A stretch of DNA of 64,000 nucleotides, taken from NCBI GenBank assembly GCA_030390025.1, contig CM059431.1, forward strand, positions 128,032,001 through 128,096,000. Direction: 5' to 3'. This DNA comes from Squalus acanthias. Lineage: Eukaryota. The translations under genes were made by a program, and so were the position numbers. The notes beneath the pieces were generated by a model, which did no database searches, was not told where the DNA came from, and worked only from the letters and a program-made list of their open reading frames with translations. This document shows, one piece after another, positions 1,026-26,505 of the stretch. How positions within the stretch are numbered: position 1 is the first letter of the stretch; every line of letters starts with the position of its first letter.

Positions 1026-1726
1026 TTACGCACCACTTTCTTCGTTCACGCGCATGTAGCGTTCTCTCCATTCCCCTGTGTTCTCCTGCTTTGTGAGGCG
1101 TTTGCCTCTTTTGCAGTGCACGACCAATAGGTACACTACAATTATAACTTGGCACACTACCAAAATGTGGGAGGCTATCCTGATCCATGAAGGAACTTCA
1201 ATATTAATGAACAGATCCCACCACGGTGGGATTACTATGTCCAAAGTTTCTGTCCCTATCTCGACAGTCTTTTGTTCCAGGGTGTAAAAATGTTTTTGTG
1301 ATACCGCGACGGCTTTCAAAAGCTTGGTGAGGTGTTCAGGGAGAGGGGGAATGATGTATCCGAAATGCGCGACGAATCGCTGCAAGTCGGTGAAATTCTC
1401 TTTTACTGTTAGATGAACAGTGGATGGTTCAGGGATCGGGACAATTCGCTGCTGTGCCACTTCAACTTCAGCCCTGGGTGTAAAACAGAAACTGCTGTCA
1501 CTCACCGGACACCGGCTGTGGTTTGCATGCTGGTAGTTTTGCGCTGCAGTGGTAACACAATATGTTCCACCCCCTATGTAGGCCACCTGCGGAGGCACAT
1601 GATCTTGTGTCATTGCTTCCATGGTGCAATTCATGGGCTTTGCGCCAGCCGTTCTGAACCCGCATTGTGGTGTTAAAAAGGCATTCAAGTGCTGGGGACA
1701 CAGTATGATGTGTGCTGCCCGGCCAC
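1026..1726 (-). pseudogene. env: Element B env, C-terminal piece (Cys-rich region, TM anchor, cytoplasmic tail)
   Basis: Open frame nearly identical to the element A Env C-terminus; separated from the rest of env by the element A insertion. Confidence 0.92.
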
Positions 1727-3400
1727 TGTAGAATTCGCAATTATCGCGATTTGATTAATAAGGAGAAAACACAAAGTTTCGTTCAAACAGCTTTTTATTT
1801 CAGCAGAATGCTGTCAGGTTTAAATTGGACACAAGCAGCCTGTAAAATGGCCGCCGCACCTCGTGACAGAACATTCTAGACTTTTCAACAGGCAGACAAG
1901 ATGGCGTTCCATTAAACATTCTTGCAAGATCGATGACGATTCAGCACAGTGAAGATAATACACGAGACATTATGGGTTCACAGTATAAACATCGATACTG
2001 AAATCGGTCTCCCAGGTACAAAGGAAAGCCATTGCACCGAGTAATCAAGGGCCCATCCAAAGGACATTAGTATGTAAACTCCCAACGGCTCTACGATGAG
2101 AGAGCCGTTAGCAGGTAGTTATACATGACACTTGGAAGCCCCAAACCCCTCCAGGGAGAACACCGACCGATTTAACAATGGGAGAAGTATTAACAGGTAC
2201 TCAAACATTCATGAGTAGCCCCGAAACCCATTAAGAACGGAGATCACCCATACAGGACATTTGGGCGCCAAACCTTAAACAAAAGAATGGACATTATAGT
2301 TGGGCGGGAAACGGAAGAATTGTGCACTATAATTGCAGGCCCCAAACCGTCCATTCGCTCTCTTGCTCTTGACTCTTGCCTCTTGTTCGTGCTCCTGCAT
2401 TCGTGGTTGCTCCTGTGTTTTATCCGGTCGATTCGTAACCTCGTGGCTGCTCCTGTGTAAAAGACTGTTGAACTTTCTGATCCGTTCGGATCTACCTCGT
2501 GTCGCGTAACGAAGACCTATGTTGGTAACTGGCAGCGGAACCAAAGGCCCGAGATGAGATGAGATGAGATGAGATGAGAGGAGAAGAGAAGAAGACCATA
2601 TCCATCGCCACGGTCAGTAAATCCCGACCGCGCCTGTAGGTCGATCAGCCAAGTCTTCTCAAACAGGAAGTTTTCTTCGTTAAACTTTTAACAAGACATA
2701 TTGCATCAACGATAACTGGACTGTGCAAACACATCGTATCAGTGATATTGACAACGGTGCTCCACGATTATACTTTGAAGCCAACCAACAGAGGTCTTCA
2801 CTACAGCGGACGGTCCAGCCGACTGACCGAGCAGCAGAAGCAGTAAACAAGTGGGACCAGGAGATCTCCTGACCAACACGTGGGTGCTGCGGTGAAAAAC
2901 ATCCGATCAGCTATTCGGGTTTTCTCCGAGTTATTACGAGTGGTGAGCATGAGTCTCGAGATCCTACGAAGCTAGTTTAGGATAGATATTGATAGGGGAG
3001 GGTTTAAAGATTAAGGATATTTGTAATGTGTGCCCTATTTACGTTGTGCCGTTCGTTCCTCGTTTCCCTAAGAGTGATTATAACTGTTTGTAAGATTGTA
3101 CTGTCATTAATCTGTGCGTATGACATGTATTTCATAATTTTAAGTATCATGCAATAAAGATTTTCCATTTCGTACCGTTCAAACCAAGTCTACATGAGTT
3201 TTATCTCCATTACTGCTCTCGCATCTAAGTCCAGTGTCTAGAACCGTAAGGGAGAGTGATTCGAACCACTCACAGGGGTGTCTAGTGTTCCCAGACTGGC
3301 TGGAGACCAGGCCTAGACCCGCACTGACATACAGGCTGCACAGAGCCGCGTGAATCTCACAGGCTACGAGACACGCAGGGTCAGGAGAGAATCCCTTACA
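1727..3400 (+). repeat. Element A 5' LTR (1674 bp)
   Basis: Direct repeat of 9433-11096. TATA-like TATAA near 2328, (GAGAT)n near 2551-2580, AATAAA at 3153-3158. Confidence 0.96.
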
Positions 3401-3404
3401 GAAA

Positions 3405-5216
3405 ATGGCGACCGCGGCAGGACACTGGCAGCGAGAGGGTAGTGTGTTAGATTTTGGAATGACTGTACGAAATGTGATGCAGGAAAAGATAGCGGATTAC
3501 GTATTTGGAAAGGTTAATCTAACTAAAAAGTGGATAAGCGAATTGTTAGCGGATAAGAGCCCACTAGAGGCAGCTGAAAGGTGGACTGATAGTAAGGAGC
3601 ATAAAAAGGCAGTTGAGAAAGCAGTCTGGCTTATGTGCTACAAAAGGCAGGTTCAGATTTCAAACCAGACCAATACAGCGCTAACCGCTCGAATCAAGCA
3701 GTTAGAGGAGGAAATGGAGGAGAAGGTTTCTGGAGGGGAGGCGCTCATTAAGAGTTTAAATGAGTTACGCCAGGAAAGCCAGGAAGTCTCCAGTTACCTT
3801 AAAACAAGGGTAGAGTATCTCGAGTGCCAGATCACTGAAGCAAAATTGAACGAGAGTAGGATGAAGGAAAGATGTAACCGCCAAGCTGCCCAGATAAGAA
3901 CTCAAGAAGAGAGCTTAATGGGGGTTAGGTCGGCGTATAAGTTGGCCCTTGAGGATAAGTTTCAGGGAGCCGACCATAGCGCCTGCCAAAAAGAGATAGA
4001 GAGCCTCAAAAGGGCCGTGAATAATGCGAACGGCATGGTGTGCCTTATCAATCCGTCGGCGCGCCAGCCGCTAGTAAATGAGAGATTTAGAAATTCCCCA
4101 CCAAGTAAAGCAGAAGAAGTAGTAGCCACTGCGCCCTCCGCGCCACCCAGCTATTCAGAAACCTGGGTTAGGGAGGAAGCAACGGAAGAAACAAAAGAGC
4201 CCGTTGAAAAGGAAGTAGAAAAGGGATCGTTGTATCCAGTAACGGGGATTAAAAGGGGCCCAAGCAGAAACGGTGGGGAAGAACCGGGGGATCTCCTCGG
4301 ACAGCTGGTGTTGCCTCACAGTTCACATCAGCTGAGGGCCATGATAAACCACGTAAGGAAGCTGACCGAGATAGACGACCCTTCCGTACATTTCAGGGAA
4401 GTTGAGCAAGCCGCAGCCATTAACGGCTGCGATGATGGGGAGACAGCAAAAATGCTGCTGTTCTCGTTAGATAGCTCGGTCCTTCAGTGTCTCTCAGGCG
4501 ATAGCAAGAGGGGAAATAAAAGTTATGAGGAATTGAAAAATGAGGTCCTAGAAGTAGTGGGAGCGAACGACGGAGGTCCGTTTGCTAGAGTGGGACAGAC
4601 AGTGCAGATGGAGGGAGAACCCCCGAAGGTTTTTGCCGACAGGCTGTGGCCAGTATATGAGCGCAGCTGTCTAGGTGCGCCCGAGCGCGAAGATGTGGAA
4701 GGCGCCGCTTTAATTCATTGGCTTAGGTGCATCATAGCCAACAGTTTACCAGCCGTTAGAGAGCAGGCAAAAGCCTGGTTCGATCCCAATGACCTCAACC
4801 TTACGGAAGAGTCGGTCTTGAATCGACTTACGTTAGGTTACCGTAACATAAGGGGTATGACGACACGTCCCTTTAAGGGAAGAGTACATGAGGTACGACC
4901 CGCAGCCCCAGCTCAGAGAGAGTGGCATCAGGAGGGTAATCGCGCCCCACAGGCAAGTAATGCCTGTTACGGGTGTGGGAAGACAGGGCACTGGCGCAAG
5001 CACTGCAGGAACCCTTGGAAGGATTCCAAGGATAAAAATCCCGCGGTCCGAGCCCAGGCGCCTGTCCCGCCTAAGGAAGCAAAGGCACCCACCTCTCCCG
5101 AAGACCTCGAAGCAGTGTTAGGAGTCATGCGCAAGATGGTTTTGAATGCGCGTGGACAGGTGGCGGTCGCAACCGGCCCCGTAGGTGCCGCAGGACCGTC
5201 TAATAGTACCCAATGA
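3405..5216 (+). CDS. gag: Gag (603 aa): N-terminal coiled coil, capsid-like region, CCHC knuckle
   Basis: Intact ORF just after the LTR; CYGCGKTGHWRKHC zinc knuckle; homologous to element B gag. Confidence 0.92.
   Translation: MATAAGHWQREGSVLDFGMTVRNVMQEKIADYVFGKVNLTKKWISELLADKSPLEAAERWTDSKEHKKAVEKAVWLMCYKRQVQISNQTNTALTARIKQLEEEMEEKVSGGEALIKSLNELRQESQEVSSYLKTRVEYLECQITEAKLNESRMKERCNRQAAQIRTQEESLMGVRSAYKLALEDKFQGADHSACQKEIESLKRAVNNANGMVCLINPSARQPLVNERFRNSPPSKAEEVVATAPSAPPSYSETWVREEATEETKEPVEKEVEKGSLYPVTGIKRGPSRNGGEEPGDLLGQLVLPHSSHQLRAMINHVRKLTEIDDPSVHFREVEQAAAINGCDDGETAKMLLFSLDSSVLQCLSGDSKRGNKSYEELKNEVLEVVGANDGGPFARVGQTVQMEGEPPKVFADRLWPVYERSCLGAPEREDVEGAALIHWLRCIIANSLPAVREQAKAWFDPNDLNLTEESVLNRLTLGYRNIRGMTTRPFKGRVHEVRPAAPAQREWHQEGNRAPQASNACYGCGKTGHWRKHCRNPWKDSKDKNPAVRAQAPVPPKEAKAPTSPEDLEAVLGVMRKMVLNARGQVAVATGPVGAAGPSNSTQ
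3406..3423 (+). promoter_or_regulatory. Primer-binding site, tRNA-Ser-like, overlapping the gag ATG
   Basis: TGGCGACCGCGGCAGGAC lies 5 nt after the LTR and is identical in B (23778-23795, minus). The tRNA identity is inferred from the TGGCG...GGCAGGA pattern. Confidence 0.7.
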
Positions 5217-6371
5217 CTAGAGTCCACGCAGCCTGCCTACCTGTGTCCTTTTAAAAGACACGCACAGGAGGGGGTCTGCGGTGAGGAGGCCAGGTTAAAA
5301 GAGCAGGCCTTGCGGGAGGAGAACGCCCGCTTAATAGGGAAAATAGATAGGCTGGAAGGGCAGCTTAGAGAGCAGGCCCTGCGGGAGGAGAACGCCCGAT
5401 CAATGGGAGAGTTAGACGTGCTCAGGCTAGAAGGGCAGCTTAGAGAGATAAAAGCAGCCTACAGGGTAGCCAGGAGCAGGGAGTATGAGGATTTAAAACA
5501 GGATAGAAATCTGCAGCCTCCAGCAGGTGAGTTTTCACAGAAACAAGCAGGGGCGGTGGCCTGTCTTAAGGGAGGGGCCAGACCTGCGAGTGGGGAAGCA
5601 CAGCCCCAGGTAGGACCACAAGGCACACAGGCAGGCGTAGCAGCTTGCATCAGGGGAAGGGACATCCCGGACGATCATGCAGCGTTTTTCTGGAGTTGGG
5701 GGTTAGATGACGAGGACCCCAGGGTACCCTGGTCAGATGAGGATAGTGCAGATGAGCATAGTGATGACGACGGGTGGTTTCGGAGGAACGGTCCCTTTTA
5801 CGATATGGGGAGAATGCGGGCTGCAGATAGAGATCCACACAGGGTGGACACACAAGCTGCAGGTCCCGAGGACAGGAGGGAGGAGCTAGAGGAGGCAGGG
5901 CCAGCCGCTATAGGAGCACAGAGAGTACCAATGTGGTTCCCAGAGGGGTGGCCGCCCGCTTTGAACGTCCAGTCCTCAGGGGAGGCAGAGATCACGAGTG
6001 AAGGGCCGCCTGCTGGGCCGAGCAGGGCGGAGCCACGAAATGCCAGCCCCGAGGTTAGGGAGGCGGAGTCAGCGGAGGCGGAGCTGGCGACTGTGATGGA
6101 ACCCCAGGTCATCCCGTTGGAGGTCTCGGAACCCGGTCCGTCCGTCACGGAGCCCCCGCCCATAGCAACTCCCCGTAGGTCAAGCAGAGAACCCCAGCCC
6201 AGGAGGATGTGGTCATGTCCCCAGACTGCCCCAAGGCGTAAGTTTCAGGTTAAGATAACCCGGGTAGAGACAGGCCACATCGAAGCAGTAACAGGCTGCG
6301 GCAGATCAGAGGGAAGGGTCAGTGCCCTCCCACCGTCGGGAAGAGCTCGCAGCAGCCTTCTCAGAATTTAA
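5217..6371 (+). CDS. Readthrough ORF X (384 aa) in frame with gag: pol leader, coiled-coil repeat, integrase C-terminal tail homolog
   Basis: No stop from 5217 to 6368. Starts LESTQPAYLCP (B pol: LEPAQPVYLCP) and ends GRARSSLLRI (B pol: GKARGSLHRI). Confidence 0.8.
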   Translation, partial: LESTQPAYLCPFKRHAQEGVCGEEARLKEQALREENARLIGKIDRLEGQLREQALREENARSMGELDVLRLEGQLREIKAAYRVARSREYEDLKQDRNLQPPAGEFSQKQAGAVACLKGGARPASGEAQPQVGPQGTQAGVAACIRGRDIPDDHAAFFWSWGLDDEDPRVPWSDEDSADEHSDDDGWFRRNGPFYDMGRMRAADRDPHRVDTQAAGPEDRREELEEAGPAAIGAQRVPMWFPEGWPPALNVQSSGEAEITSEGPPAGPSRAEPRNASPEVREAESAEAELATVMEPQVIPLEVSEPGPSVTEPPPIATPRRSSREPQPRRMWSCPQTAPRRKFQVKITRVETGHIEAVTGCGRSEGRVSALPPSGRARSSLLRI

Positions 6372-6659
6372 AGGGGCCGCCCTGAGAACGGGCGGCACTG
6401 TAAAGTTATTAGTTTAAGGTTAAGTTTTAAAGTTTTAGTTAAGTTTTAAGTTTATTAGTTCAAGGCTAAGTTTGTAGTGTTTTAACAGATAACGATAAAA
6501 TGATGGGAGTTTTAAGGCTAGGTTTAGAGGAAGTCTATTCAGCAAACGTTGAAGTTTACGTGAGGCGAGGTCAGGGGACCCGCTCACCCTTCACAAAAGC
6601 CAGAGACTTTTTGCGAGGCTGGCTACCTCATTCTATCTGATCACAGGAACCAAGGAAGG

Positions 6660-9011
6660 ATGGAACGACTTATAGTATTGCTCGTGGCAATCGAATGTGG
6701 ATTGGCCTATCGAGGCCACACCAAGGATGTCGTGGTGTTTGGATGTTCCGGGGACACGGCCCCCATCGCGGTGGATGGGACCGGGAGACGGAAGGCAGAG
6801 GGGACCAGCACCTATTTCCACAAGGGAAGGTGGCCAGGATGGCTGGGAACGAACTCAACGGAGTATTCCAGCACATCGGGGTTCGCCTACAAAGAGACTT
6901 CTTTAATGTGCCCCAAAGTACGGATCATCGCACCCAGGATCAGCGTCACCGTCGGCAAACGGATTTGTTTGACCTGCAGTGGGGATGTCCCATTGAGCCG
7001 ATGGTGGTGGCTGCGAAAGCTGAGCAAAACTATGAGGAACTCTTCGGTTGAGTGGGAGCGACTGGGTAATAATACCCATCGGACAATTACGGGGACAGAC
7101 GGACAAGTGAAAGTCTGTTGGGACAAATGGTGGGAACCGGATGAGGGAATTTATGTTTGTATGTGGGGGTCAAAGTACGTTTGCCCCAAAGGCATCTCCA
7201 TATTTTTTATTAATCAGTGGCAGGATAACGGACAGGGGATGAGGTGGGATGCGAGCACCAGGGGGTGCGGAGCCCCATACTCTCCGATCCCAGTAAATGC
7301 CACTGAGCTCATTACGCGCCCACGCAAAGCCCCGCCCACGATTCCGGTGGTTCTAACTGAGGAAGAAGGGTGCCCTAAAGCTAGTAAGGGACCCGGGAAC
7401 GGTTTGGTACTGGTCCCCACAGACCAGATACTATTTCAGGGGGTACATTACGCGGTGGCCTCGGTGATTTTAAATCTCACTGAGGTACGGTTACCAGAGT
7501 GGTGCCCCAAAAAGACGGAACAGTTGTATCAGGTCCTGTTGACCAAGATGTTCAGGCAATTTTACGAGTTTGATTTTTCAGAAATTGATAAGACAAGTTT
7601 ATACACCGCACCGCAGGAAGCTTTGGATCAAGTAGGGAGGCAAAGAAGGGGTTTGGTGAACGATGCGTTCACTGCTTTTAACACAGGGACATCTGTGGTC
7701 AACGCTCTAGACAGTGTGGAGCTGCAGACCCAGATTAATGGTTTAAAAACACAGTTAAAGGACATCCTAACAGATGAGAATAAAGTGGTAGGGTCGGGTC
7801 TGCACGAGGACCAAGCCATGACTCTCCATTTAAAGGAAATCATAGCAGAGCTGGAGAAACATGCGCGTACGGTAAATGCCCTGATCAGGGAAGATCGGAA
7901 TGCATCCGATCAAGCTGCGCAGAACGAGGTGTGCGTGCTTTACGGGGCGTGGTTACTGGGCGAGGGCCGCAGTAATTTGGAGGATTTAAAACAAGGTTTG
8001 GTTCCGTCCTGGATAAGTAACAAACACCTGCGGGCGCTCCACCCTTTTCAGAACGCATTAAGTCCGTGCCAGCTCAGGCTAGCTTCAGAAGCTTACCCAG
8101 TCCCCGTGGACTGCGGACGTTCAAACCATACTATTATGGGAATAGTATTACGCATGCCGGTTTTGGGCAACACAGCAAAGCCCGCCCCGGTATATCGGGT
8201 AGAGAACATTGGTGTCATTCAGGGGGGAGCCCACATTCGTTATGCAGCGGTTCCACCTTACGTCATCCGCTGGGAGCAAACGATGACAGGTACAGATCTC
8301 TCTGGTTGTCGTGGCAGGGGAGCACACATAATACTGTGCCCCCAGCACTTGAATGCCTTTTTAACACCACAGTGCGGGTTCAGAACGGCTGGCGCCAAGT
8401 CCATGAATTGCACCATGGAGGCAATGGCACAAGATCATGTGCCTCCGCAGGTAGCATACATCGGGGGTGGAACATACTGTGTTACCACTGCAGCGCAACA
8501 CTACCAGCATGGAAACCGTAGCCGGTGTCCGGTGAGTGACAGCAGTTTCTGTTTTAAACCCAGGGCTGAAGTTCAAGTAGCACAACAACGAATTATCCCA
8601 ATCCCTGAACCATCCACTGTTCATCTCACAGTAAAAGAGAATTTCACCGACTTGCAGCGATTTGTCGCGCATTTTGGATACCTCATTCCCCCTCTCCCTG
8701 AGCATTTAACCAAACTTCTGAAAGCCGTCGCGGTATCACAGAAGCATTTCTATACGTTAGAGCAGAAAACTGTCGAGATAGGAACAGACATTTTGGACAT
8801 AGTGGTTCCACCGTGGTGGAATCTGTTCACTAATATTGAAGTGCCCTCATGGGTCAGAATAGCCTCCCACATTTTAGTCGTCTGTCAAGTGTTTATTGTA
8901 GTGTACCTATTGTTCATACATTGTAAAAGAGACAAGCGCCTCACCAAGCATGAGAACACGGGAGAGTGGCGAGAACGTTACGTGCGCGTGCACGATGAGA
9001 GCACCGTGTAA
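6660..9011 (+). CDS. env: Envelope glycoprotein (783 aa): signal peptide, Ig V-like domain, furin site RQRR, fusion peptide, heptad repeat, TM
   Basis: Hydrophobic N-terminus; RQRR|GLVNDAFTAFNTG at aa 327-343; N-glycosylation sequons; TM IASHILVVCQVFIVVYLLFIHC. Confidence 0.92.
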   Translation: MERLIVLLVAIECGLAYRGHTKDVVVFGCSGDTAPIAVDGTGRRKAEGTSTYFHKGRWPGWLGTNSTEYSSTSGFAYKETSLMCPKVRIIAPRISVTVGKRICLTCSGDVPLSRWWWLRKLSKTMRNSSVEWERLGNNTHRTITGTDGQVKVCWDKWWEPDEGIYVCMWGSKYVCPKGISIFFINQWQDNGQGMRWDASTRGCGAPYSPIPVNATELITRPRKAPPTIPVVLTEEEGCPKASKGPGNGLVLVPTDQILFQGVHYAVASVILNLTEVRLPEWCPKKTEQLYQVLLTKMFRQFYEFDFSEIDKTSLYTAPQEALDQVGRQRRGLVNDAFTAFNTGTSVVNALDSVELQTQINGLKTQLKDILTDENKVVGSGLHEDQAMTLHLKEIIAELEKHARTVNALIREDRNASDQAAQNEVCVLYGAWLLGEGRSNLEDLKQGLVPSWISNKHLRALHPFQNALSPCQLRLASEAYPVPVDCGRSNHTIMGIVLRMPVLGNTAKPAPVYRVENIGVIQGGAHIRYAAVPPYVIRWEQTMTGTDLSGCRGRGAHIILCPQHLNAFLTPQCGFRTAGAKSMNCTMEAMAQDHVPPQVAYIGGGTYCVTTAAQHYQHGNRSRCPVSDSSFCFKPRAEVQVAQQRIIPIPEPSTVHLTVKENFTDLQRFVAHFGYLIPPLPEHLTKLLKAVAVSQKHFYTLEQKTVEIGTDILDIVVPPWWNLFTNIEVPSWVRIASHILVVCQVFIVVYLLFIHCKRDKRLTKHENTGEWRERYVRVHDESTV

Positions 9012-9420: not shown

Positions 9421-9432
9421 AACAGGAGGGAC
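9421..9432 (+). promoter_or_regulatory. Polypurine tract of element A
   Basis: AACAGGAGGGAC immediately before the 3' LTR TG. Confidence 0.85.
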
Positions 9433-11096
9433 TGTAGAATTCGCAATTATCGCGATTTGATTAATAAGGAGAAAACACAAAGTTTCGTTCAAACAGCTTT
9501 TTATTTCAGCAGAATGCTGTCAGGTTTAAATTGGACACAAGCAGCCTGTAAAATGGCCGCCGCACCTCGTGACAGACTTTTCAACAGGCAGACAAGATGG
9601 CGTTCCATTAAACATTCTTGCAAGATCGATGACGATTCAGCACAGTGAAGATAATACACGAGACATTATGGGTTCACAGTATAAACATCGATACTGAAAT
9701 CGGTCTCCCAGGTACAAAGGAAAGCCATTGCACCGAGTAATCAAGGGCCCATCCAAAGGACATTAGTATGTAAACTCCCAACGGCTCTACGATGAGAGAG
9801 CCGTTAGCAGGTAGTTATACATGACACTTGGAAGCCCCAAACCCCTCCAGGGAGAACACCGACCGATTTAACAATGGGAGAAGTATTAACAGGTACTCAA
9901 ACATTCATGAGTAGCCCCGAAACCCATTAAGAACGGAGATCACCCATACAGGACATTTGGGCGCCAAACCTTAAACAAAAGAATGGACATTATAGTTGGG
10001 CGGGAAACGGAAGAATTGTGCACTATAATTGCAGGCCCCAAACCGTCCATTCGCTCTCTTGCTCTTGACTCTTGCCTCTTGTTCGTGCTCCTGCATTCGT
10101 GGTTGCTCCTGTGTTTTATCCGGTCGATTCGTAACCTCGTGGCTGCTCCTGTGTAAAAGACTGTTGAACTTTCTGATCCGTTCGGATCTACCTCGTGTCG
10201 CGTAACGAAGACCTATGTTGGTAACTGGCAGCGGAACCAAAGGCCCGAGATGAGATGAGATGAGATGAGATGAGAGGAGAAGAGAAGAAGACCATATCCA
10301 TCGCCACGGTCAGTAAATCCCGACCGCGCCTGTAGGTCGATCAGCCAAGTCTTCTCAAACAGGAAGTTTTCTTCGTTAAACTTTTAACAAGACATATTGC
10401 ATCAACGATAACTGGACTGTGCAAACACATCGTATCAGTGATATTGACAACGGTGCTCCACGATTATACTTTGAAGCCAACCAACAGAGGTCTTCACTAC
10501 AGCGGACGGTCCAGCCGACTGACCGAGCAGCAGAAGCAGTAAACAAGTGGGACCAGGAGATCTCCTGACCAACACGTGGGTGCTGCGGTGAAAAACATCC
10601 GATCAGCTATTCGGGTTTTCTCCGAGTTATTACAAGTGGTGAGCATGAGTCTCGAGATCCTACGAAGCTAGTTTAGGATAGATATTGATAGGGGAGGGTT
10701 TAAAGATTAAGGATATTTGTAATGTGTGCCCTATTTACGTTGTGCCGTTCGTTCCTCGTTTCCCTAAGAGTGATTATAACTGTTTGTAAGATTGTACTGT
10801 CATTAATCTGTGCGTATGACATGTATTTCATAATTTTAAGTATCATGCAATAAAGATTTTCCATTTCGTACCGTTCAAACCAAGTCTACATGAGTTTTAT
10901 CTCCATTACTGCTCTCGCATCTAAGTCCAGTGTCTAGAACCGTAAGGGAGAGTGATTCGAACCACTCACAGGGGTGTCTAGTGTTCCCAGACTGGCTGGA
11001 GACCAGGCCTAGACCCGCACTGACATACAGGCTGCACAGAGCCGCGTGAATCTCACAGGCTACGAGACACGCAGGGTCAGGAGAGAATCCCTTACA
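9433..11096 (+). repeat. Element A 3' LTR (1664 bp)
   Basis: Differs from the 5' LTR by a 10-bp indel (1871-1880) and one substitution seen by eye (G2938/A10634). Confidence 0.96.
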
Positions 11097-11284
11097 CCAC
11101 GACAACCCGAGAGATCGGTACCTGTCATCGTTTGCTCCCAGCGGATGACGTAAGGTGGGACCGCTTCATAGCGGATGTGGGCTCCCCCCTGAATGACACC
11201 AATGTTCTCCACCCGGTACACCGGGGCGGGCTTTGCTGTGTCGCCAAAGACCGGCATACGTAGCACTATACCCATGATGGTCTG
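11097..11284 (-). pseudogene. env: Element B env, middle piece between the A and C insertions
   Basis: Encodes MGIVLRMPVFGDTAKPAPVYRVENIG...DLSGCRG, collinear with A Env. Confidence 0.92.
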
Positions 11285-11478
11285 TGTGGTAACACAATAC
11301 AGCTTCCTGTGACTCGAACTTTATTGCATCACTTCCTGTGATTAGTCCAGGATAAATACTGGACTGAGCAGTTGGATCCTGGAGAGGCATAGAGTAAGAC
11401 CTCTTTTGTATGTAGCACCTTTTTAGTTGATTAAAGCTTACTTTAAGTTCACCACGCGTAAGGCTCATTCTTACGACA
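11285..11478 (+). repeat. Element C 5' LTR
   Basis: Identical to 15533-15726. Confidence 0.95.
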
Positions 11479-11556
11479 ATTTAATCAACTTTGAAAAACT
11501 TCGCACTCAAACTTTTTGGACGAACTCGGAACTAAGGATCCAGGGAATCACCCATC

Positions 11557-14500
11557 ATGGAAAACATCCTTAAACCATCGCGTCTCGACTTGGACCCAAA
11601 CACCCCAGCAGCCGGTAAGGTGTGGAAACACTGGTATCGCACGTTTGACAATTTTCTCGAATATTGCAAGGCTGATGATGACACAAAGTTGCGGATACTC
11701 ATCAACTGTGTCACTCCGAATGTATTTCAGTATGTTGAGGAATGGGGCAGTTACGAGGAGGCAATTCGGACGCTTAAAAGACTATATACTAAGACACCGA
11801 ATGAGGTCTATGCCAGACATCTACTAGCTACAGCCCAACAAGGGCCGGAGGAATCCATTGATAAATTCCTCCAAGAGCTTCGCAGACTTAGTATGGACTG
11901 TAACTTTCAGGCGGCCTCAGCTGAGCTGTACCGTGAAGAAATGATCCGTGATGCTTTCATCTGCGGGCTTGCCTCCCCATTTATACGCCAGCGTCTACTG
12001 GAAAGTAAGACACTTGAGCTTCAGAGAGCTTATGATATGGCTTGCTCTCTAGATCTGGCAAAAAGAAATGCAGACCTTTATACAGTGCCCAGACCTCGGT
12101 CTGCTGCCTTAACTACAGTCAGGCAATTTAAGAGGCCACAAGTGAACTCTATTAGGGAGGACTTTATCCCTGACGATCAATCTGATGACTTCACTGATGA
12201 AGAGGATGATGACCCCACTGTGGCAGCCTCTTGGCAATCTAAGAAATGCTTCTTTTGTGGTGATGAGTTTCACCCTCGGAAATTCTGCCCTGCTCGCAAT
12301 GCGTTTTGCAGTCATTGCAACAAAAAGGGTCATTTTGCAAAGGTTTGCCTATCAAGAGCCTCTACGAGGGCTTATCAAGCTAAGTCCTACCGAACTGCCC
12401 CGGTAAGGGCCTATCAAGATGTTCCGGCTAAAATCTATCGTGCTTCCTCTCGGGTTTTCTCTCGAAGAAACACACCTAGAGTTTCAGCCACTCTTTGTGC
12501 AACGACACCAATTACAGCTGCTTGTCCTCAGAACCTATTCCATGCAGCTACAAAAGCATCAATTAATGGACATACTTTAGATGCCTTAATTGACTCAGGT
12601 AGCACTGATAGTTTCATTAGGGAACAGATTGTTGCAGAGTTAAAGCTACATGTTTTCCCATCGGACCAGGCAATTGCGATGGCTCAGTCATCACTTAATA
12701 CCAGAATTTCTGGCTTTTGTATGGTTGAAATAACACTTAATGGTCACAGGTATCCCTCCACCCGGCTTTCGGTGCTCAAGGACTTATGTAGTGATCTTAT
12801 CTTAGGGCTGGATTTTCAAAAGCAGCATAAGAAGCTCACCATTGAGTTCGGCGGATCCAAACCTGAACTCACTATTTCTAATATACGACCTCGATTACCG
12901 TTCTGTGCATTGTCAGCAACTTCACTGGATGAACCCTCACTGTTTACCAGTATCCCTCCTCGATGCAAACCGATTATAACAAAGTCACGACGTTTCAGTC
13001 AGGAAGACCAGTCTTTTATTGCGGCTGAGATTTCTCGGCTTTTAGCAGAGGATATCATCGAGCCTTGTTCGTCGCCATGGCGCGCCCAGGTCGTTATTGT
13101 TAAGAACCCTCTACAACCTCACAAGAAACGGCTGTGCATTGACTATTCACAGACCATCAATCAATATACGGACTTGGACGCATACCCATTGCCGCGCATC
13201 GATGATATGGTTAATAAACTGGCTGAGTACACGGTGTTCTCAACATATGATCTGAAAAGTGCCTATCATCAGGTACCCTTGAAGGTCTCAGACAAGCAGT
13301 ATACGGCCTTTGAAGCCAATGGACGGCTGTATCAATTTCGTCGCCTCCCCTTTGGGGTCACTAATGGAGTGGCTGTCTTCCAGCGAGCAATGGATGACCT
13401 GGTCAAACAGGAAGACTTGAAGGATACGTTTCCTTATCTGGACAATATTACTGTCGCAGGTCGCAATCAGCGGGAACATGACGCCAATCTCCAACGATTT
13501 TGGGATGCACTCCAGCACCGTAATTTGACATTAAATGCGGCTAAATCCATTGAGTCACAACCAACCATCAACATCCTTGGCTATTGTGTGGGCAATGGCA
13601 TCATTAAACCTGACCCTGAAAGGCTTCGCCCACTCCAAGAGCTCCCGCAACCTAAGAATCCGGCCTCCTTGCACCGGGCCCTCGGCCTGTTTGCATACTA
13701 TGCTAAATGGATTCCTAACTTCTCGGACCGAATCCAACCTCTACTGAAGGCCAGCACATTCCCACTAGACACAGCGGCTGTTGCAGCCTTTAACCTCCTG
13801 AAAAAACAGTTGGAGAAAGCGGCTCTTCACTCCATCGATGAGAGTCTTCCTTTTGTTGTTGAGTGTGATGCCTCGGAGGTGGCGATCTCAGCCACTCTGA
13901 ATCAGGAAGGTCGTCCGGTGGCATTTTTGTCCAGGACTTTTCAAGGGGCTGAGCTACATTATCCTCCAGTCGAGAAAGAAGCTACAGCCATCATAGAGGC
14001 AGTACGGAAGTGGACTCATCTCCTAGCTCGCCAGCACTTTACCTTAATCACGGACCAGCGATCGGTCGCCTTCATGCTCGATAATCGAAAACGGACCAAA
14101 ATTAAAAATAATAAAATCCAGCTTTGGCGGCTGGAATTGGCCTCTTTTGGTTACACCATCCACTATCGACCTGGCAAGGAGAATGTGGCTCCGGATACCC
14201 TCACACGAGCATTCTGCTCCGCCATGGCACCCTCTACGCTCGTAGACATCCATGATGGGTTGTGTCATCCGGGCGTTACTCGCATGCTACACTTCGTGCG
14301 GTCCCGAAATCTCCCATTCTCTACCGGGGATGTAAAGAAGATGTGCTCGGACTGCAGAGTCTGTGCGGAATTGAAACCTCAGTTTTTCCGCCCCTCGGAT
14401 GGTATACTCATACATGCGACCCAGCCAATGCAACGGCTTAGCATCGATTTTAAGGGGCCGTTGCCCTCTTCAACTCGCAACACTTATCTATTGACCATGG

Positions 14501-15513
14501 TCGATGAGTATTCCCGTTTTCCGTTTGCCTTTCCCTGCCCCAATATGCTGACGACCACGGTTATCAGCTGCCTTGAGCAGGTATTTGCTTTCTGTGGCAT
14601 GGCATCCTATGTTCATTCGGATCGGGGCCCTTCTTTTATGTCAGGAGAACTCAAGGCCTATCTCTCGGAACGGGGTATTGCTGCCAGCAGAACGACGCCT
14701 TATCATCCGGTCGGGAATGGGCAAGTCGAGCGTTTTAACGCTATCATCTGGAATGCGGTACGTCTGGCTTTGAGATCTCGGGGCCTACCCAACCAGCAAT
14801 GGGAAGCAGTACTTCCAGACGCATTACACTCCACACGGTCCCTCCTTTCGACCGCCACAAATACGACGCCTCATGAACGGTTCTTCCGATTTCAGCGTCG
14901 CTCATCCTATGGGATATCTCTCCCGTCGTGGCTGACTGCACCGGGACCAGTGCTACTCCGAAGATATGTCCGGGCGTCTAAGAATGACCCCCTGGTAGAT
15001 GAGGTTGAGCTCACTGACGTCAACCCTACCTACGCCTATATTCGGTATCCTGACGGTCGGGAATCTACCGTGTCATTGCGGGATCTGGCTCCCTGCCCGC
15101 CGAAACATAGAGGGACACCAGGGGATGATATTGTACCAGGCACATCTCTGGGCTCACCAGGTGCCTCTCATCACGATCTGGATCTGACGCCGGCTGGTAC
15201 CTCACTCCAGCGTGCCGACCTGGGGCAGACTGACTATGAGCCCGTCGGGGCTCGCACGCGCAGCCACGATCCACCCCGTACCATACGCTCGGAAACGGAT
15301 CTGCCACAGCCCTGCCCGACACCCGTTCGGGCACCAGTACACAGTCAGGATCGTCCTAACCCCTCACAGAGCGGGCTGGATCACTCGGACTCTGGTCCAC
15401 GGCCCGCGGCGGGTAAACGGGCTAGGGGCCCTCTACCGCTACGAGAACCCAAACGGGTGCGGCTCTCCCTCGTCCGGCGGCTACGAAATGGAGGGAGCAT
15501 CCCGGCCTCCTAA
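11557..15513 (+). CDS. Gag-Pol polyprotein (1318 aa): double CCHC, PR, RT, RNase H, IN
   Basis: CFFCGDEFHPRKFCPARNAFCSHCNKKGHFAKVC; LIDSGS; YDLKSAYHQ...LPFG...YLDN; ECDAS; HHCC; SIDF...HSDRG...QVERFN. Confidence 0.95.
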   Translation: MENILKPSRLDLDPNTPAAGKVWKHWYRTFDNFLEYCKADDDTKLRILINCVTPNVFQYVEEWGSYEEAIRTLKRLYTKTPNEVYARHLLATAQQGPEESIDKFLQELRRLSMDCNFQAASAELYREEMIRDAFICGLASPFIRQRLLESKTLELQRAYDMACSLDLAKRNADLYTVPRPRSAALTTVRQFKRPQVNSIREDFIPDDQSDDFTDEEDDDPTVAASWQSKKCFFCGDEFHPRKFCPARNAFCSHCNKKGHFAKVCLSRASTRAYQAKSYRTAPVRAYQDVPAKIYRASSRVFSRRNTPRVSATLCATTPITAACPQNLFHAATKASINGHTLDALIDSGSTDSFIREQIVAELKLHVFPSDQAIAMAQSSLNTRISGFCMVEITLNGHRYPSTRLSVLKDLCSDLILGLDFQKQHKKLTIEFGGSKPELTISNIRPRLPFCALSATSLDEPSLFTSIPPRCKPIITKSRRFSQEDQSFIAAEISRLLAEDIIEPCSSPWRAQVVIVKNPLQPHKKRLCIDYSQTINQYTDLDAYPLPRIDDMVNKLAEYTVFSTYDLKSAYHQVPLKVSDKQYTAFEANGRLYQFRRLPFGVTNGVAVFQRAMDDLVKQEDLKDTFPYLDNITVAGRNQREHDANLQRFWDALQHRNLTLNAAKSIESQPTINILGYCVGNGIIKPDPERLRPLQELPQPKNPASLHRALGLFAYYAKWIPNFSDRIQPLLKASTFPLDTAAVAAFNLLKKQLEKAALHSIDESLPFVVECDASEVAISATLNQEGRPVAFLSRTFQGAELHYPPVEKEATAIIEAVRKWTHLLARQHFTLITDQRSVAFMLDNRKRTKIKNNKIQLWRLELASFGYTIHYRPGKENVAPDTLTRAFCSAMAPSTLVDIHDGLCHPGVTRMLHFVRSRNLPFSTGDVKKMCSDCRVCAELKPQFFRPSDGILIHATQPMQRLSIDFKGPLPSSTRNTYLLTMVDEYSRFPFAFPCPNMLTTTVISCLEQVFAFCGMASYVHSDRGPSFMSGELKAYLSERGIAASRTTPYHPVGNGQVERFNAIIWNAVRLALRSRGLPNQQWEAVLPDALHSTRSLLSTATNTTPHERFFRFQRRSSYGISLPSWLTAPGPVLLRRYVRASKNDPLVDEVELTDVNPTYAYIRYPDGRESTVSLRDLAPCPPKHRGTPGDDIVPGTSLGSPGASHHDLDLTPAGTSLQRADLGQTDYEPVGARTRSHDPPRTIRSETDLPQPCPTPVRAPVHSQDRPNPSQSGLDHSDSGPRPAAGKRARGPLPLREPKRVRLSLVRRLRNGGSIPAS

Positions 15514-15532
15514 TCTTTTGGGGGGGGGAGAA

Positions 15533-15726
15533 TGTGGTAACACAATACAGCTTCCTGTGACTCGAACTTTATTGCATCACTTCCTGTGATTAGTCCAGGA
15601 TAAATACTGGACTGAGCAGTTGGATCCTGGAGAGGCATAGAGTAAGACCTCTTTTGTATGTAGCACCTTTTTAGTTGATTAAAGCTTACTTTAAGTTCAC
15701 CACGCGTAAGGCTCATTCTTACGACA
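15533..15726 (+). repeat. Element C 3' LTR
   Basis: Preceded by a G-rich PPT; identical to the 5' LTR. Confidence 0.95.
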
Positions 15727-17198
15727 GTATGGTTTGACCGTCCGCAGTCCACGGGGACTGGGTATGCCTCTGAGGCTAGCCTGAGCTGGCACGGGCTTAA
15801 TGCGTTCTGAAAAGGGTGGAGCGCCTGCAGGTGTTTGTTACTTATCCAGGACGGGACCAAACCTTGTTTTAAATCCTCCAAATTACTGTGGCCCTCGCCC
15901 AGTAACCACGCCCTGTATAGTATGCACACCTCGTTCTGCGCAGCTTGATCGGATGCGTTCCGATCTTCCCTGATCAGGGCATTTACCGTTCTCGCATTCT
16001 TCTCCAGCTCTGCTATAATCTCTTTTAAGTGTAGTGTCATGTCCTGGTCCTCATGTAACTCAGACCCTACTACTTTGTTTTCGCTTGTGAGGATGCTTTT
16101 TAATTGTGTTTTTAAACCATTGATCTGGGTCTGCAGCTCCACGTTGTCTAGAGCGTTGACCACAGATGTTCCTGTATTAAAGGCAGTGAACATATCGTTC
16201 ACAATACCCCTTCTTTGTCTCCCCACCTGACCCAAAACTTCGTGTGGTGTGGTGTACAAGCTTGTTTTGTCAATCTCTGCAAAATCAAACTCGTAGAATT
16301 TTCTGAACATGTTTGTCAACAGGACCTGGTACAATTGTTCCGTCTCTTTGGGGCACCACTCTGGTAAACGCACCTCGGTGAGATTTAGAATCACCGAAGG
16401 CACCGCGTAATGTACCCCCTGAAATAGTATCTGGTCTGTTGGGACCAGTACCAAACCATTCCTGGGCCCCTTAGTGGTTTTAGGGCACCCTTCCTTCTGA
16501 GCCAAAACCACCAGAATCGTGGGAGGAGCCTTGCGTGGGCGCGTGATGAGTTCAGTTGCGTTTACCGGGATCGGGGAGATTTGAGCTCCGCACCCCTTGG
16601 TGCTGACATCCCACCTCATCCATTTCCCGTTATCCTGCCACTGGTGTACGAAAAATATGGATATACCTTTGGGGCAAACGTATTTCGATCCCCACATACA
16701 AACATATATTCCCTCATCCGGTTCCCACCATTTGTCCCAACAGACTTTCAAGTGTCCGTTAGTCCCCGTAATTGTCCGATGGGTATTGTTACCCAATCGC
16801 TCCCACTCAACCGAGGAATTTCTCATAGTCTTGCTTAACTTCCGTAACCAGCACCATCGGCTCAATGGGACCTTCCCATTGCATGTCAAACAAATCCTTT
16901 TGCCGACGGTGACGCTGATTCTGGGTGCAATGATCCTCACTCTGGGGCACAGTAAAGAAGTCTCTTTGTAGGCAAATCCGGATGCGCTGGAGTATTCCGT
17001 TGAATTCGTTCCCAGCCATCCCGACCACCTTCCCTTGTGGAAATACGTGGCGGTCTCCTCAGCCTTTTGCTCCCCGGTCCCATCCATCGCGATGCGGCCC
17101 GTGTCCCCGGAGCAACCGAACACAACGACATCCTTGGTGAGGCCCCGATAGGCCAATCCATATCCGATCGTTGCGAGCACTATCAGAATCGTTTCCAT
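15727..17198 (-). pseudogene. env: Element B env, N-terminal piece (signal peptide, Ig-like domain, RQRR)
   Basis: Open frame collinear with A Env up to DCGRSNHT, then runs into the element C LTR. Confidence 0.93.
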
Positions 17199-17477
17199 CT
17201 CTCCTGGTTCCTGTGATCAGATAAAATGATGTAGCCAGCCTCCCAAGAGTCTCTGGCTTTTGTGAAGGGTGAGCGGGTCCCTTGACCTCGTCTCACGTAA
17301 AAGGACATGTATGCTGGATAGACTTTAACTATTCCTATCTCTAACTCCCATCATTTTACCATTTACTTTTACAAATTAAGCTACAATCTTACCAAACTCA
17401 TAAAACTATAAACTTAAACTTATAAACTTATCCTAAACTTAAACTGTACAGCGCCGCCCGTTCCCAGGGCGGCCTAC

Positions 17478-20400
17478 CTAAATTCTGTGAAGGCTGCCAC
17501 GAGCTTTTCCCAGTGGTGGGAGGGCACTGACCCCTTCCTTTGATCTGCCGCAGCCTGTCGCCGCTGCGCTGGGACTGGGATCTCCCTGGGCTGCCTTGAC
17601 TTTGAACTTACGCCTGGGGGCGTACGGGGGACTTGACCACGACTTCCTGGGCTGGGGTGTCCAACTTGACCTACGGAGGGCTACTTTGGGCAAGATTTCC
17701 AGGGCCGACGGACCAGGAACCAAGAGTTCCACCGTCATGGCCTGTGGTCCTACCACAGCCGCTGGCTCAGTCTCCCCTGGCTCCGCCACCCTGAACTTGG
17801 GATTTGCAGTTTCTGGCTCCACCCTACTTGGCCCAGTATGTGGTCCTCCACTCGCAATCCCTACCTCCCCCAAGGGCAAGACTTCCAGGGCCGACGGACC
17901 GGGAACCGAGACTTCCACCGTCACGACCTGTGGTCCTACCACAGCCGCTGGCTCCGTCTCCCCTAGCTCCGCCCCCCTGGGCTCGGGATCTGCAGTTTCC
18001 GATTCCACCCTGTGTGGATCTCCACTCGCAGCCCCTATCTCCCCTGAGCTTGAGTCGAGGATGAAACTTTCGTCCTCCGACCCCAGCACCTCTCCGATCG
18101 GGTCACTACCTTGGTTGAGCTCCTCGAGCTCTTCCTCATCTGAATCCCAACACCAAGAAAAGATCCTACACTTTTCTAGAATGTCCTCTCCCCTCAAGCA
18201 GGCTGCTTTACCGGTCTGTGTGCCCTGCGGTCCTACCCGGGGCTGCGAGTCCCCACTCGCAGGTCTGGCCCCTGTGATTGGCCCCTGTGCACCCAGCTTA
18301 TACAACTTGCACTGGTTAATGTGGAACCATTTCGTGCGCCGAGGTACCTTTATGGCGTACACCATGGGACTCGCTTTATCTGCAATACTGTAGGGTCCCA
18401 TATACAGTGGTTCCAAACTCCCTACTCTGGCATAGTTCCTAACCATGACCTGATCTCCGACTTCCCACTCCTGCTTCTTACGAGGTTCCAGCAACAGGCG
18501 ATTGCCCTGATGCTGTCTTCCCATGTTCCCAGCCGCCTGCTCGTAAACCTGCTTCAGGCGCTCCAAGAGGGTCTGGACAAACTTGTCCCTTTCCACCTCT
18601 TTGAGCTGGACCTCAGTGAGCACCGGGGCTAGTAAATGGGTGGGGTGGGGGTTCGCATGATCCTCCCAGTCATCACCTCGTACGGGGAATACCCCGTACT
18701 CTTCGACTGGATGGCCCGGATTCCCATGAGGACTAGAGGCAGAATCTCCGCCCATTTTTGGGGCGAGTTCATAGTCTCTTTCCTCAGCTTCTCCTTGAGG
18801 GTCCGGTTCATGCGTTCAACAATCCCGGATGACTGGGGATTGTGCGCTACGTGCCACTTCCCTTCAATGCCCAAAAGCATGAGGGTGTTCTGCATCACCT
18901 GGCCGGTGAAATGACTCCCTTGGTCTGACTCCACGAAACGGGGGAGTCCCCACCGCGAGAACACTTCCCGGACCAAGATCTTGGCAGTAACCAGCGCCGT
19001 AGCTTTTCTACAGGGGAAGGCTTCTACCCATTTGGAAAACACATCCACCAAGACGAGGCAGTATTTGTAGCCTCCCTGGGTGGTGGGCAGGGGCCCTATG
19101 TAATCGATCTGTATCAACTGCCATGGTCCCTCCACCCTTCTGATGTGCCCCATGTGCACTTTCCTTTTCTGGGGGTCTGGGTTGTTTGCAGCGCACACAA
19201 GACAGTTTGCACAGAACTCGCGGACCTGCTCCCTGAGTCCCGGCCACCATCACGCCTGCTCTACCCGTTGCCAGGTAACCTCGGGCCTGGGGTGCCCTGC
19301 CCCCGGCCCCTCATGAGCCAACTGGAGGAATTCCCTCCTGTGCTGCTGTGGCACAACCCACTGCTCCTCGCGGAACAGCATGCCTTCTTTAACGGAGAGG
19401 GTTGTCGTACTGTACGGGTCCTCTACCTGCTTACCCTCAGTAATCGTTCTGAGAACTGCTTTTAGGGCGGGATCCTGGTTCTGGACGGTCTTAAGGTCTA
19501 GGGGCAGTGCTACCCTGGCGTTCCCGGGATTCCCTTCCCTGCCTTGGATCGCTGCCATGGGTCCGGGTCCATAGGGGTCCCAGAAAATGCCGTTACGGGC
19601 ACCCTCCCTGGCTAGCGCATCCGCCTGCTGGTTGACCTCCCCGCGGGGCTCTGTGGAGGAGTGAGCCTTCACCTTATGGATTTAAATGTCCCCTTCCTCC
19701 CCAAGTGCTGCTAGGATCTTTTCCAGCAAGGGCTTCACCGTTAAAGGTCGCCCGTCCGCGGAGGTATATCCACGGCGGGACCAAATGGCCAGGTATTCCG
19801 TACACGAATTGCACGTAAACATACTGTCCGACAAATTGTGTATGGGGTTGGGAAGATCTCTAGGTGGGTCACTACGTACGCCACCGCAGACGGCTCAGCC
19901 TGCTGCGCGCTCATGGTGCTAGGGAGCTTGATCGCCAGGGCAAGGTTTGCCGCAGGGTCATAAACTCCACACCCTGTGAGTCGTTCGCCAGCGGACACTG
20001 TGCTGGAACCATCAACATAAATTTCGCGACCTGTGGGATGTATCCCGGCCCGCAAACCTATGTTGACCTCCCACACCCCTTCTACCGAACACCGATGGGC
20101 TGTTCTGGGGTATACCAAGTTGGCCGCAAGCCTGGGCTCGCAAAGACCTTTAACTCTAAGATCCATCTGGGAAAGGAGAAGGGTCCAGCGCGCAATTCGA
20201 GTGCTGCTTACGGTCCCATCCTTAATCCTCCCATCTAGAAGCATCTTAGTTGGTGTATGATGGGTGAGGAGAGTGATGGGAGAGAGCCCTGTGAAGATCG
20301 CTGATCTTTTCACAGCCCAATGCGTGGCTAAAAGATGCCTTTCGCAATTGGAGAAACTCCTCTCCACATCCGTTAACACCCTGGTCGAATAGACAACCGG

Positions 20401-25505: not shown

Positions 25506-25619
25506 GTGGTACATGTAATGCTGTGAAAGGTGGGACCATAGTTTTGTTGTATTTGAGAGGGGAATACAGATTTTCTTTTTACGGCGGAAAGTAGTGTAAT
25601 GGTTTGTCACATGGTCACA

Positions 25620-26505
25620 AGGATGCCAAGAAACTCCAGGATGATTTGGACAGGTTGGGTGATTGGGCAGAAGCAATATAACGTGGATAAATGCGAGGTT
25701 CTCCACTTTGGTGTCAAAAACAGAAAGGCAGATTATTATCTGAATGGCAATAGATTGGAACAAGGGGAAGTGCAACGAGACCTGGGTGTCCTTGTGCACC
25801 AGTCGCTGAAGGTAAGCATGCAGGTGTAGCAGGCGATTAAGAAGGCAAATGGCATGTTGGCCTTCATAGCGAGAGGGTTTGAGTACAGGAACAAGGATGT
25901 CTTCCTGCAGTTGTACAGGGCCTTGGTGAGACCACACCTTGAGTACTGTGTGCAGTTTTGGTCGCCTTATCTGAGGAAGGATGTTCTTTCCATGGAGGGA
26001 GTTCAGCGAAGATTCACAAGGCTGATACCTGGGATGGCAGGAATGACGTATGAAGAGACATTGGGTCTTTTGGGCTTATACTCGCTGGAATTTAGAAGAA
26101 TGAGAGGGGATCTCATTGAAACTTATAAAATTCTGACAGGACAGGACAAACTAGATGCAGGAAGGATGTTCCCGATGGTCGGGGAGTCCAGAACCAGGGG
26201 TCACAGTCTAAGGATAAGGGGTAAGCCATTTAGGACAGAAATGAGGAGGAATTTCTTCACCCAGAGAGTGGTGAACCTGTGGAATTCTCTGCCACAGAAA
26301 GCAGTAGAGGCCAATTCATCAAATAGATTCAAGAAGGAGTTGGATATGTGTCTTAAGGCTAAAGGGATCAAGGGATATGGGGAGAAACCAGGGACAGGGT
26401 ACTGAATTTGGATGATCAGCCATGATCGCATTGAATGGCAGAGCAGGCTCGAGGGGCCGAATGGCCTACTCCTGCTCCTATCTTCTATGATTCTATGATT
26501 CTATG
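25620..26505 (+). mobile_element. CR1-clade LINE, 5'-truncated (ORF2 C-terminus, 3' UTR)
   Basis: LYRALVRPHLEYCVQFWSPY...RRMRGDLIETYKI; tail (TTCTATGA)n. Confidence 0.9.

Follow-up and report, generated by a model that had tools for sequence, protein, structure and literature searches.

Several described families of endogenous retroviruses (ERVs) consist of competent and defective partners, such as bovine ERVK[2-1-LTR] C/D, MusD/ETn and KoRV-A/recKoRV (PMC10924933, PMC6466679), and recombination between the morphs is reported as well (PMC10924933). The mouse IAP IΔ1 elements are non-autonomous, are mobilised by full-length copies of their family and have been very successful, and for their fusion protein an action in cis has been reported (PMC6466679). 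Such competent/defective pairs are known to drive ERV dynamics as well as fresh insertions in the germ line. Here we describe a defective element found in a 64,000-nucleotide stretch of the Squalus acanthias genome (contig CM059431.1, positions 128,032,001 to 128,096,000; below, the window). This provirus, element A, carries in the place of pol an open reading frame (ORF), ORF X. Element A is most likely a pol-deleted lineage of a class I ERV with a reverse transcriptase (RT) like that of murine leukaemia virus (MLV), in which X occupies the 'Gag-Pol slot'. The kind of element, a parasite of a parasite, is known; its form, a copy of a gag helix fused to the tail of integrase (IN), is unusual. 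As the best explanation of X, held with evenly balanced confidence, we propose that a satellite ERV dependent on helpers makes it by readthrough, as part of a Gag-X protein under loose constraint.

The window holds nested proviruses, element A on the plus strand being inserted in env of a minus-strand element B, an old relative about 84% identical to it (coordinates in Table 1). Element A has the order gag, ORF X in the same frame, a 288-nt spacer and env, and element B the order gag, stop, protease (PR), RT, RNase H, IN and a long tail. An initial annotation, made from the sequence of the window, had described X as pol with its enzymes replaced, with 11 codons of pol leader in front and, at the other end, homology to the tail of B integrase down to its final residue, and this anatomy is borne out. 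In Pfam searches B pol gives RVP, RVT_1, RNase H and rve, and X gives no family; compared with pol-type copies, element A lacks about 3.7 kb of pol between 5248 and 5583, the part that encodes PR, RT, RNase H and IN. X begins with LESTQPAYLCP where B pol begins with LEPAQPVYLCP, 5159-5248 pairs with 22030-21941 of B at 80% (blastn), and pol-bearing copies match element A exactly up to 5248 and then run on into protease. On the other side, 5573-6700 is 71.6% identical in nucleotides to 18273-17158 of B, and X residues 120-384 are 47% identical in amino acids to the end of B pol. A protein search with X, at near and longer lengths, found no match in a collection of 5.8 billion, which seems to be without this ERV family, so that this outcome has no bearing on function.

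The insert between leader and tail was described in the same annotation as containing a duplicated repeat, which proved to be a 69-nt tandem unit, and the motif REIKAAYRVA, read as an echo of KEVKAAYKMA in Gag. The latter resemblance is real, but it is not a mere echo, since it belongs to a collinear gag homology of the whole insert. With the sequences of the window, tblastn pairs X residues 42-133 with B gag (33%, E = 0.003). An older form of X, L045 (405 aa), has one repeat copy and a longer insert, which aligns collinearly, and without a gap over 73 residues, with the gag helix region. Its Smith-Waterman score against B gag is 143, a value that none of 500 shuffles attained (their mean was 36, sd 5.6), and against element A gag 113 (z = 14), and comparison of the insert with the gag of a third lineage, L067, gives z = 20-27. 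Judged by these alignments, the insert is a diverged partial duplication of the long helix of gag itself. It is 27-39% identical to each of the gags, whereas these are 45-60% identical to one another in the same region, which suggests that the copy is old, fast-evolving or derived from a more distant relative.

Two other origins were considered. Transduction of a host gene was rejected, the insert being homologous to gag of three lineages and no protein outside the family being matched in the collection searched. Derivation of the stretch REIKAAYRVA...LKQDRNLQPPAGE from the end of the SH3 domain of IN was examined because MAFFT aligned the two and because the copies L033 and L047 carry an IN-like version; nucleotide alignment gave no clear support, and the 3' junction is therefore given as ~5573-5592.

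The forms of X found in the genome make up a series. A single repeat with a long insert occurs in forms of 346, 401 and 405 aa, and the 69-nt duplication with a long insert in a form of 369 aa. In the window-type form, the duplication is accompanied by the loss of 135 nt, with which the second helix disappeared, and by two small indels (6 nt inserted, 3 nt deleted); another 24 nt are deleted in a form of 338 aa. In a form of 298 aa the insert is joined to a very different tail and the frame is still open to the homologous end. Towards the C-terminus, a 39-nt unit of varying number together with a 4-aa indel explains X lengths of 380/384, 393/397 and 406/410, and the joint of this unit (which goes back 38 letters, with one extra letter) was found in four of four sequencing runs. 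A frameshifted C-terminus in most copies had been considered and was rejected, the split matches being due to this repeat.

Intact relatives of element A are abundant. When the 3.7-Gb genome was searched for further copies, the 31-nt junction of long terminal repeat (LTR) and primer-binding site (PBS) was found at 3,067 places (0 in the control), and junction 33-mers, with at most 3 mismatches, gave about 1,275 X-type and about 2,170 pol-type places (controls 0). A blind sample, consisting of the first 20 zero-mismatch LTR/PBS-junction places on contig 1 in an order independent of X, contained 13 pol-type elements, 6 X-type and 1 other. The pol ORF was complete (1,494-1,507 aa) in five of six extended pol-type copies. 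RT and RNase H are closest, among solved structures, to the RT of MLV and XMRV (E about 1e-70). The genome thus contains an autonomous partner with intact pol, and the X-bearing lineage has LTR, PBS and flanking genes in common with it. That the lineage moved after the deletion is evident from X-type junctions on many contigs, from the target-site duplication and from LTRs 99.3% identical (1 mismatch and 1 gap; blastn of 1725-3400 against 9431-11096), by which this copy of element A can be judged very young.

Comparison with pol-bearing copies changes the meaning of the open frame. The initial annotation had stressed that the frame of X stays open despite heavy divergence. The frame is open, but the divergence appears only against copy B, an old relative: the pol-type copy C32 matches element A at 98.4% in gag and, from 5592 to 7471 (tail, spacer and env), at 98.0%, so that the tail of X is no more than the 3' end of pol as carried by a contemporaneous sister copy. 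Other X tails have pol-type neighbours of their own. The closest tail (in nucleotide identity) is that of C32 for the window X (97.7%), of C42 for L036 (99.5%), of C46 for L049 (99.0%), of B for L045 (95.9%) and of C43 for L047 (91.0%). Exchange of tails at 96-99.5% identity with pol-bearing copies weakens the premise that a frame had survived heavy divergence. The X-specific 5' block, in turn, shows 97-99.5% identity between copies with no more than 78-82% identity in their tails, and about 90% identity to that of L045, the tail of which is only 65% identical. Similarity of the block despite unlike tails indicates that it arose once and was moved onto different backbones, and, as read from these comparisons, it is now on at least three of them through recombination with pol-bearing copies. 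Mosaics of this type are what co-packaging of helper and defective RNAs would produce.

Two side observations concern the same copies. Just inside the 3' junction, at 5573-5594, X reads GARPASG, like old B, and the 98%-identical pol-type sister reads GVNPAKG; by this comparison the flank of the junction seems to keep an older allele that was not replaced by recombination. In addition, X-type junctions lie about 7.7 kb apart on the same strand at G000:C1:143657918, 143665641 and 143673359, and this spacing recurs at C1:204985285/204993090 and C2:133593986/133601705. As it equals the internal region plus one LTR, it suggests tandem arrays of elements sharing LTRs.

The proposal that X is expressed as an extension of Gag comes from the organisation of the gag end. 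The gag gene and X form one frame parted by a single stop, which is TGA in 30 of 30 X-centred loci. Of 19 sequences compared, 18 have the context TGA CTAG (those of the window and of B, all 11 pol-type copies and five of the six X-type copies of the sample); the sole exception, the X-type L045, has TGA CTGG. UGA CUAG is described as a readthrough-favouring consensus (bioRxiv 10.1101/2021.04.18.440353). Contigs from four sequencing runs contain records that cross 5248/5249 (runs X1, X9 and X10) and ~5573-5592 (X9 and X10). These contigs show known variants and no splice joints, and, their kind being uncertain, they are uninformative on RNA. Near-identical X-type sequence including both junctions was also seen in runs X1-X14, under five coded organism labels (A-E) and in six studies; none of these 14 runs is recorded as RNA, all being contigs of unknown or guessed kind. 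In L067 (G000:C14:32401852-32405252), on the third, more divergent backbone, the gag stop is replaced by TGG, which results in a single open Gag-X frame of 879 aa, continuing into a proline- and cysteine-rich tandem repeat of PPAVPVDTTCCSCRHHLLFLST units.

Gag itself has no sequence match in the PDB, and no Pfam family was found in it except for a weak CCHC knuckle in B gag. AlphaFold2 predicts for its N-terminus (3459-4238) a single helix of about 120 residues (46-168), followed by a helix at 173-194 and then PPSY. As modelled, such a long-helix front end of Gag is unusual for a virus with an MLV-like RT.

Two breakpoints removed PR, RT, RNase H and IN, leaving the leader, an in-frame copy of part of the gag helix and the Pol tail. 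In the course of events that we propose, X would be translated as Gag-X when ribosomes read through TGA CTAG, as seldom as in the normal production of Gag-Pol. Gag-X could enter particles through its Gag part, with PR, RT and IN supplied by helper copies, and the helper protease may release helix and tail. Selection would keep translation going through to the disordered tail, in which the sequence PRRSxRxPQPxKxWS would be a likely docking motif; apart from a GC pair near the end, nothing else in the tail is well conserved across the three lineages. The helix would then serve mainly as an in-frame linker. By analogy with the fusion protein of IAP IΔ1, the product may favour its own RNA in cis.

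The strength of this proposal depends on what selection has preserved in X. The 30 X-centred loci were chosen by similarity to X, a bias which lowers X diversity (in a gag-based search, 75 of 75 copies were at least 99% in gag while the best other X was 96%), and the sample ordered by position was added for this reason. In the X-centred loci gag and env are strongly constrained, with a pairwise ratio of nonsynonymous to synonymous rates (dN/dS) of 0.22 in the 3' 499 codons of gag (28 loci) and 0.23 in the 5' 403 codons of env, and with shared nonsynonymous and synonymous variants (N:S) of N36:S64 and N18:S67, respectively. The amino-acid sequence of X is barely constrained, near neutral. What is preserved in X is the frame. 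All 30 X-centred loci have it open across both junctions, and so have all six blind-sampled X-type copies, including L045, in which gag and env are broken. Among the matches listed, the long genome matches to X have no internal stop in all but one case; in another set of matches, an open frame of at least 296 aa surrounds the insert in 37 of the first 50.

A rather different interpretation, which we regard as a tentative but substantial possibility, is that X came about by chance, through two template switches, and is without a function of its own. X-type elements would then owe their success to a shorter length, to the retention of gag, env and cis signals and to the use of helper enzymes, and the frame would only look kept, the copies being young and their tails replaced by selected tails of the pol type. 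Several observations stand against it. Five of five X-specific indels at the subfamily level (69, 135, 24, 6 and 3 nt) are multiples of three, for which the chance is (1/3)^5 = 0.004 if phase is free, and they lie where no pol-type counterpart exists. The two junctions at which X was founded preserve the frame as well, and on each of three backbones X extends as far as the stop of pol. Finally, none of 77 shared single-base variants in X creates a stop, compared with about 3 expected from a stop fraction of about 0.04.

Other observations fit such a relic or tell against a Gag-X product. Pairwise dN/dS is 0.80 in whole X (shared variants N57:S20, nucleotide alignment) and, with protein-guided alignment, 1.1 in the leader and helix part (N10:S1) and 0.77 in the tail (N49:S19), the parts summing to 59:20 rather than 57:20 because the alignments differ. 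Across the older forms the insert has a lower dN/dS (0.31-0.46); when transition bias is taken into account (kappa about 5), its counts of N26:S18 are not significant (p = 0.11), whereas gag in the same test gives p = 1.5e-12. In the tail, which in X is a mosaic of pol-type tails, dN/dS is 0.5-1.2 in pol-type and X-type comparisons alike, so that the open frame could come from pol-type copies by recombination and not from selection in X. As the copies are young, little can be concluded from an open frame in any one of them: 9 of 13 pol-type copies have pol open for the first ~794 codons, from which about 84% open would be expected at the length of X. The argument from in-frame indels is post hoc, the ORF having been flagged because it is open. 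Moreover, in each of two pairs of older copies, L072/L073 and L069/L070, the members share a lesion truncating X; they were picked by ORF length, hence no frequency follows. An Rfam scan of 1-26000 gave chance-level matches only and no readthrough element, and hairpins predicted 3' of the gag stop were no better than shuffles (z = -1.3 to -1.4). With the contigs uninformative on RNA, translation of Gag-X is inferred from anatomy; particle incorporation and cleavage are likewise inferred. In other ERV families, defective partners that have no functional gene are reported to thrive (PMC10924933). Selection on X, which the initial annotation had proposed together with a comparison of dN/dS and frame among copies, can thus be maintained for the frame (in-frame indels, three backbones, no stops) and not for the residues, where the comparison revealed no constraint, and truncated pairs do exist.

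Function could also reside in the RNA. The 3' region of pol and the insert may have been kept for cis signals (the env splice acceptor, packaging or export), the open frame perhaps only protecting the RNA from decay triggered by a long 3' untranslated region (UTR). Ribosomes passing a leaky stop are known to protect retroviral RNA from nonsense-mediated decay. In agreement with this idea, the helix part of window-type copies is equally invariant, and unusually so, at both classes of sites (dS 0.011, dN 0.012, nucleotide diversity pi 0.007-0.02), while dS in gag is 0.084; a predicted fold allows the 5' arm retained behind the stop to pair with new sequence downstream; and the region from the IN end to env is kept whole in all X forms. 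We nevertheless consider this explanation quite unlikely. Low diversity follows more simply from a recent single origin of the X block and from sampling by X similarity, the predicted folds and the Rfam scan give it no backing, and some 3 kb of 3' UTR remains beyond the X stop anyway.

For the helix and the tail motif, the initial annotation had offered two mechanisms: a coiled coil of X with Gag or helper Gag-Pol that recruits the enzymes, or targeting to nucleus or chromatin by the basic motif RRSSREPQPR. The origin of the insert from a gag helix speaks for the former, as do the structure predictions, in which X has a single, confident helix at residues 20-97 (AlphaFold2, pLDDT 84-96; residues 98-384 are of low confidence, pLDDT <50) and gag, in the corresponding region, has the one some 120 residues long; no other part of the tail is as well conserved as the basic motif. 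Leucine and isoleucine recur in the X helix at a spacing of 3-4, as seen by eye only, and a predicted complex of the gag helix region with the X helix scored 0.02, with controls not run, and was not used as evidence. Gag-X, however, already carries the whole of Gag, which is enough for co-assembly, so an additional helix is not needed for it. With any present gag helix the insert shares only 32-39% identity, against 45-60% among gag helices, the window-type form has lost the second helix of the copied segment, and the helix part is without an excess of synonymous change. Both mechanisms seem to us very unlikely.

The Gag-X product could be given a more active role than that of a loosely constrained extension. 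Built from the gag-helix piece and the docking tail of integrase, it might be a working 'pseudo-Gag-Pol', acting in cis on its own RNA or preintegration complex and out-competing the helper, so that the X module would be a portable 'parasite cassette' spreading by recombination across at least three backbones. We regard this extended version as unlikely.

Table 1. Positions of the features discussed, numbered from the first letter of the window
Feature	Position	Strand	Remarks
ORF X, 384 codons and TAA	5217-6371	+	gag frame
pol leader remnant, 32 nt, 11 codons	5217-5248	+	5' breakpoint 5248/5249
X-specific insert, ~325 nt	5249-5572	+	diverged copy of gag helix segment, by alignment
Tandem duplication, 69 nt (EQALREENAR...GQLR twice)	5300-5447	+	Tandem Repeats Finder: x2.1, 82% matches
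C-terminal tail of Pol, after IN SH3-like domain	5573-6368	+	acidic, proline-rich, probably disordered (low-confidence prediction)
PRRSSREPQPRRMWS	6171-6215	+	best-conserved tail island across three backbone lineages
39-nt (13-aa) unit	6291-6329	+	single here; 1-3 tandem copies in aligned copies
gag	3459-5216	+	stop-to-stop frame 3354-5216; TGA stop 5214-5216
gag motifs: PPSY; CCHC knuckle; N-terminal long helix	4143-4154 (PPSY); 4965-5006 (CCHC)	+	sequence and AlphaFold2
gag segment paralogous to X insert	3834-4055 (gag residues 126-199)	+	end of long helix and next helix
Stop context TGA CTAG	5214-5220	+	readthrough-favouring consensus (bioRxiv 10.1101/2021.04.18.440353)
Target-site duplication CCAC, 4 bp	1723-1726 (left), 11097-11100 (right)	+	flanks element A
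Element A 5' LTR (TG...CA)	1727-3400	+	blastn and ends read
Primer-binding-site-like TGG... stretch	3406-3423	+	directly after 5' LTR
Spacer between X and env, non-coding	6372-6659	+	AT-rich TTAAGTTT-like repeats
env, 783 codons, intact	6660-9011	+	open reading frame
Element A 3' LTR	9433-11096	+	purine-rich tract just before, ~9421-9432
Element B LTRs	1-633 and 24873-25507	minus-strand element	97.8% identical
B pol tail	17481-18272	-	homologous to X residues 120-384
B gag helix segment	23122-23394	-	homologous to X insert

Some features of the window outside X deserve a brief description. As an ATG at 3405 lies inside the PBS-like stretch, gag probably starts at the ATG at 3459. Few stretches of the X-centred loci vary as much as the spacer (pi 0.078), and its TTAAGTTT-like AT-rich array at 6401-6454 has many small indels in other copies and runs. 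The 783-aa product of env, a frame listed together with 15510-17216 of the minus strand, matched no family in a Pfam search; it has an RQRR furin-like site about 40% in and a C-terminal membrane anchor. The env of element B is split as well by a Ty3/gypsy-type LTR retrotransposon (11285-15726, plus strand) with an intact gag-pol ORF of 1,318-1,325 aa (11536/11557-15513); its LTR segments, 11285-11478 and 15533-15726, are identical over at least 194 nt, and this insertion looks very young. Beyond the B 5' LTR, an open frame of 191 aa (25830-26405, plus strand) may correspond to the C-terminal part of a LINE-type reverse transcriptase, which it resembles.

The family constitutes an unusually rich natural system, with thousands of copies, intact helpers in the same genome and traceable recombination onto new backbones. 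Its defective lineage has retained gag and env and has no sequence of its own other than an in-frame cassette of single origin, intermediates of which (single repeat, then duplication, then deletion) are still present. If selection at the level of the frame is true, a cis-acting fusion protein of the IΔ1 kind would have arisen independently in a class I virus and in a genome of non-mammalian size, and a function for the long, fast-evolving integrase tail would be indicated. If it is not real, the case is a warning that a frame open 'despite divergence' can stem from recombination with selected relatives and from the wrong comparison copy.

When set against known systems, element A resembles IAP IΔ1 in being an internally deleted ERV in which the deletion creates a novel in-frame fusion ORF. 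The IΔ1 deletion takes part of gag and part of pol, with no env and no inserted duplicate (PMC6466679), whereas element A has complete gag and env, has lost all pol enzymes and has a duplicate of the gag helix joined to the IN tail; expression would, moreover, be by stop readthrough in a class I virus. With the competent/defective pairs it shares a swapped central segment, kept flanks, recombination between morphs and many defective copies. The accounts of those pairs report trans-complementation, for which mosaic recombination is indirect evidence here, and describe defective partners without functional genes, in which the swapped-in piece is an old piece of another retroelement (PMC10924933, PMC6466679). 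In the present family, unlike in those, gag and env are under purifying selection and the swapped-in piece comes, in frame, from the family's own gag lineage.

As in gammaretroviral Gag-Pol, gag and pol are in one frame with a single stop between them. The MLV gag stop is UAG followed by a pseudoknot; here the stop is TGA with CTAG, and the readthrough product of the X-type would be without enzymes. The C-terminal tail of MLV integrase is a docking peptide for a host factor, and the tail of X is like it an unstructured extension after an SH3-like domain, with a short conserved motif. It differs in being ~265-290 residues long, almost neutral outside small islands and, in the X-type, detached from IN. 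Acute transforming retroviruses, too, have lost pol, carry a chimeric ORF linked to Gag and spread with the aid of a helper. In element A, by contrast, no host gene was captured, and the insert is homologous to gag.

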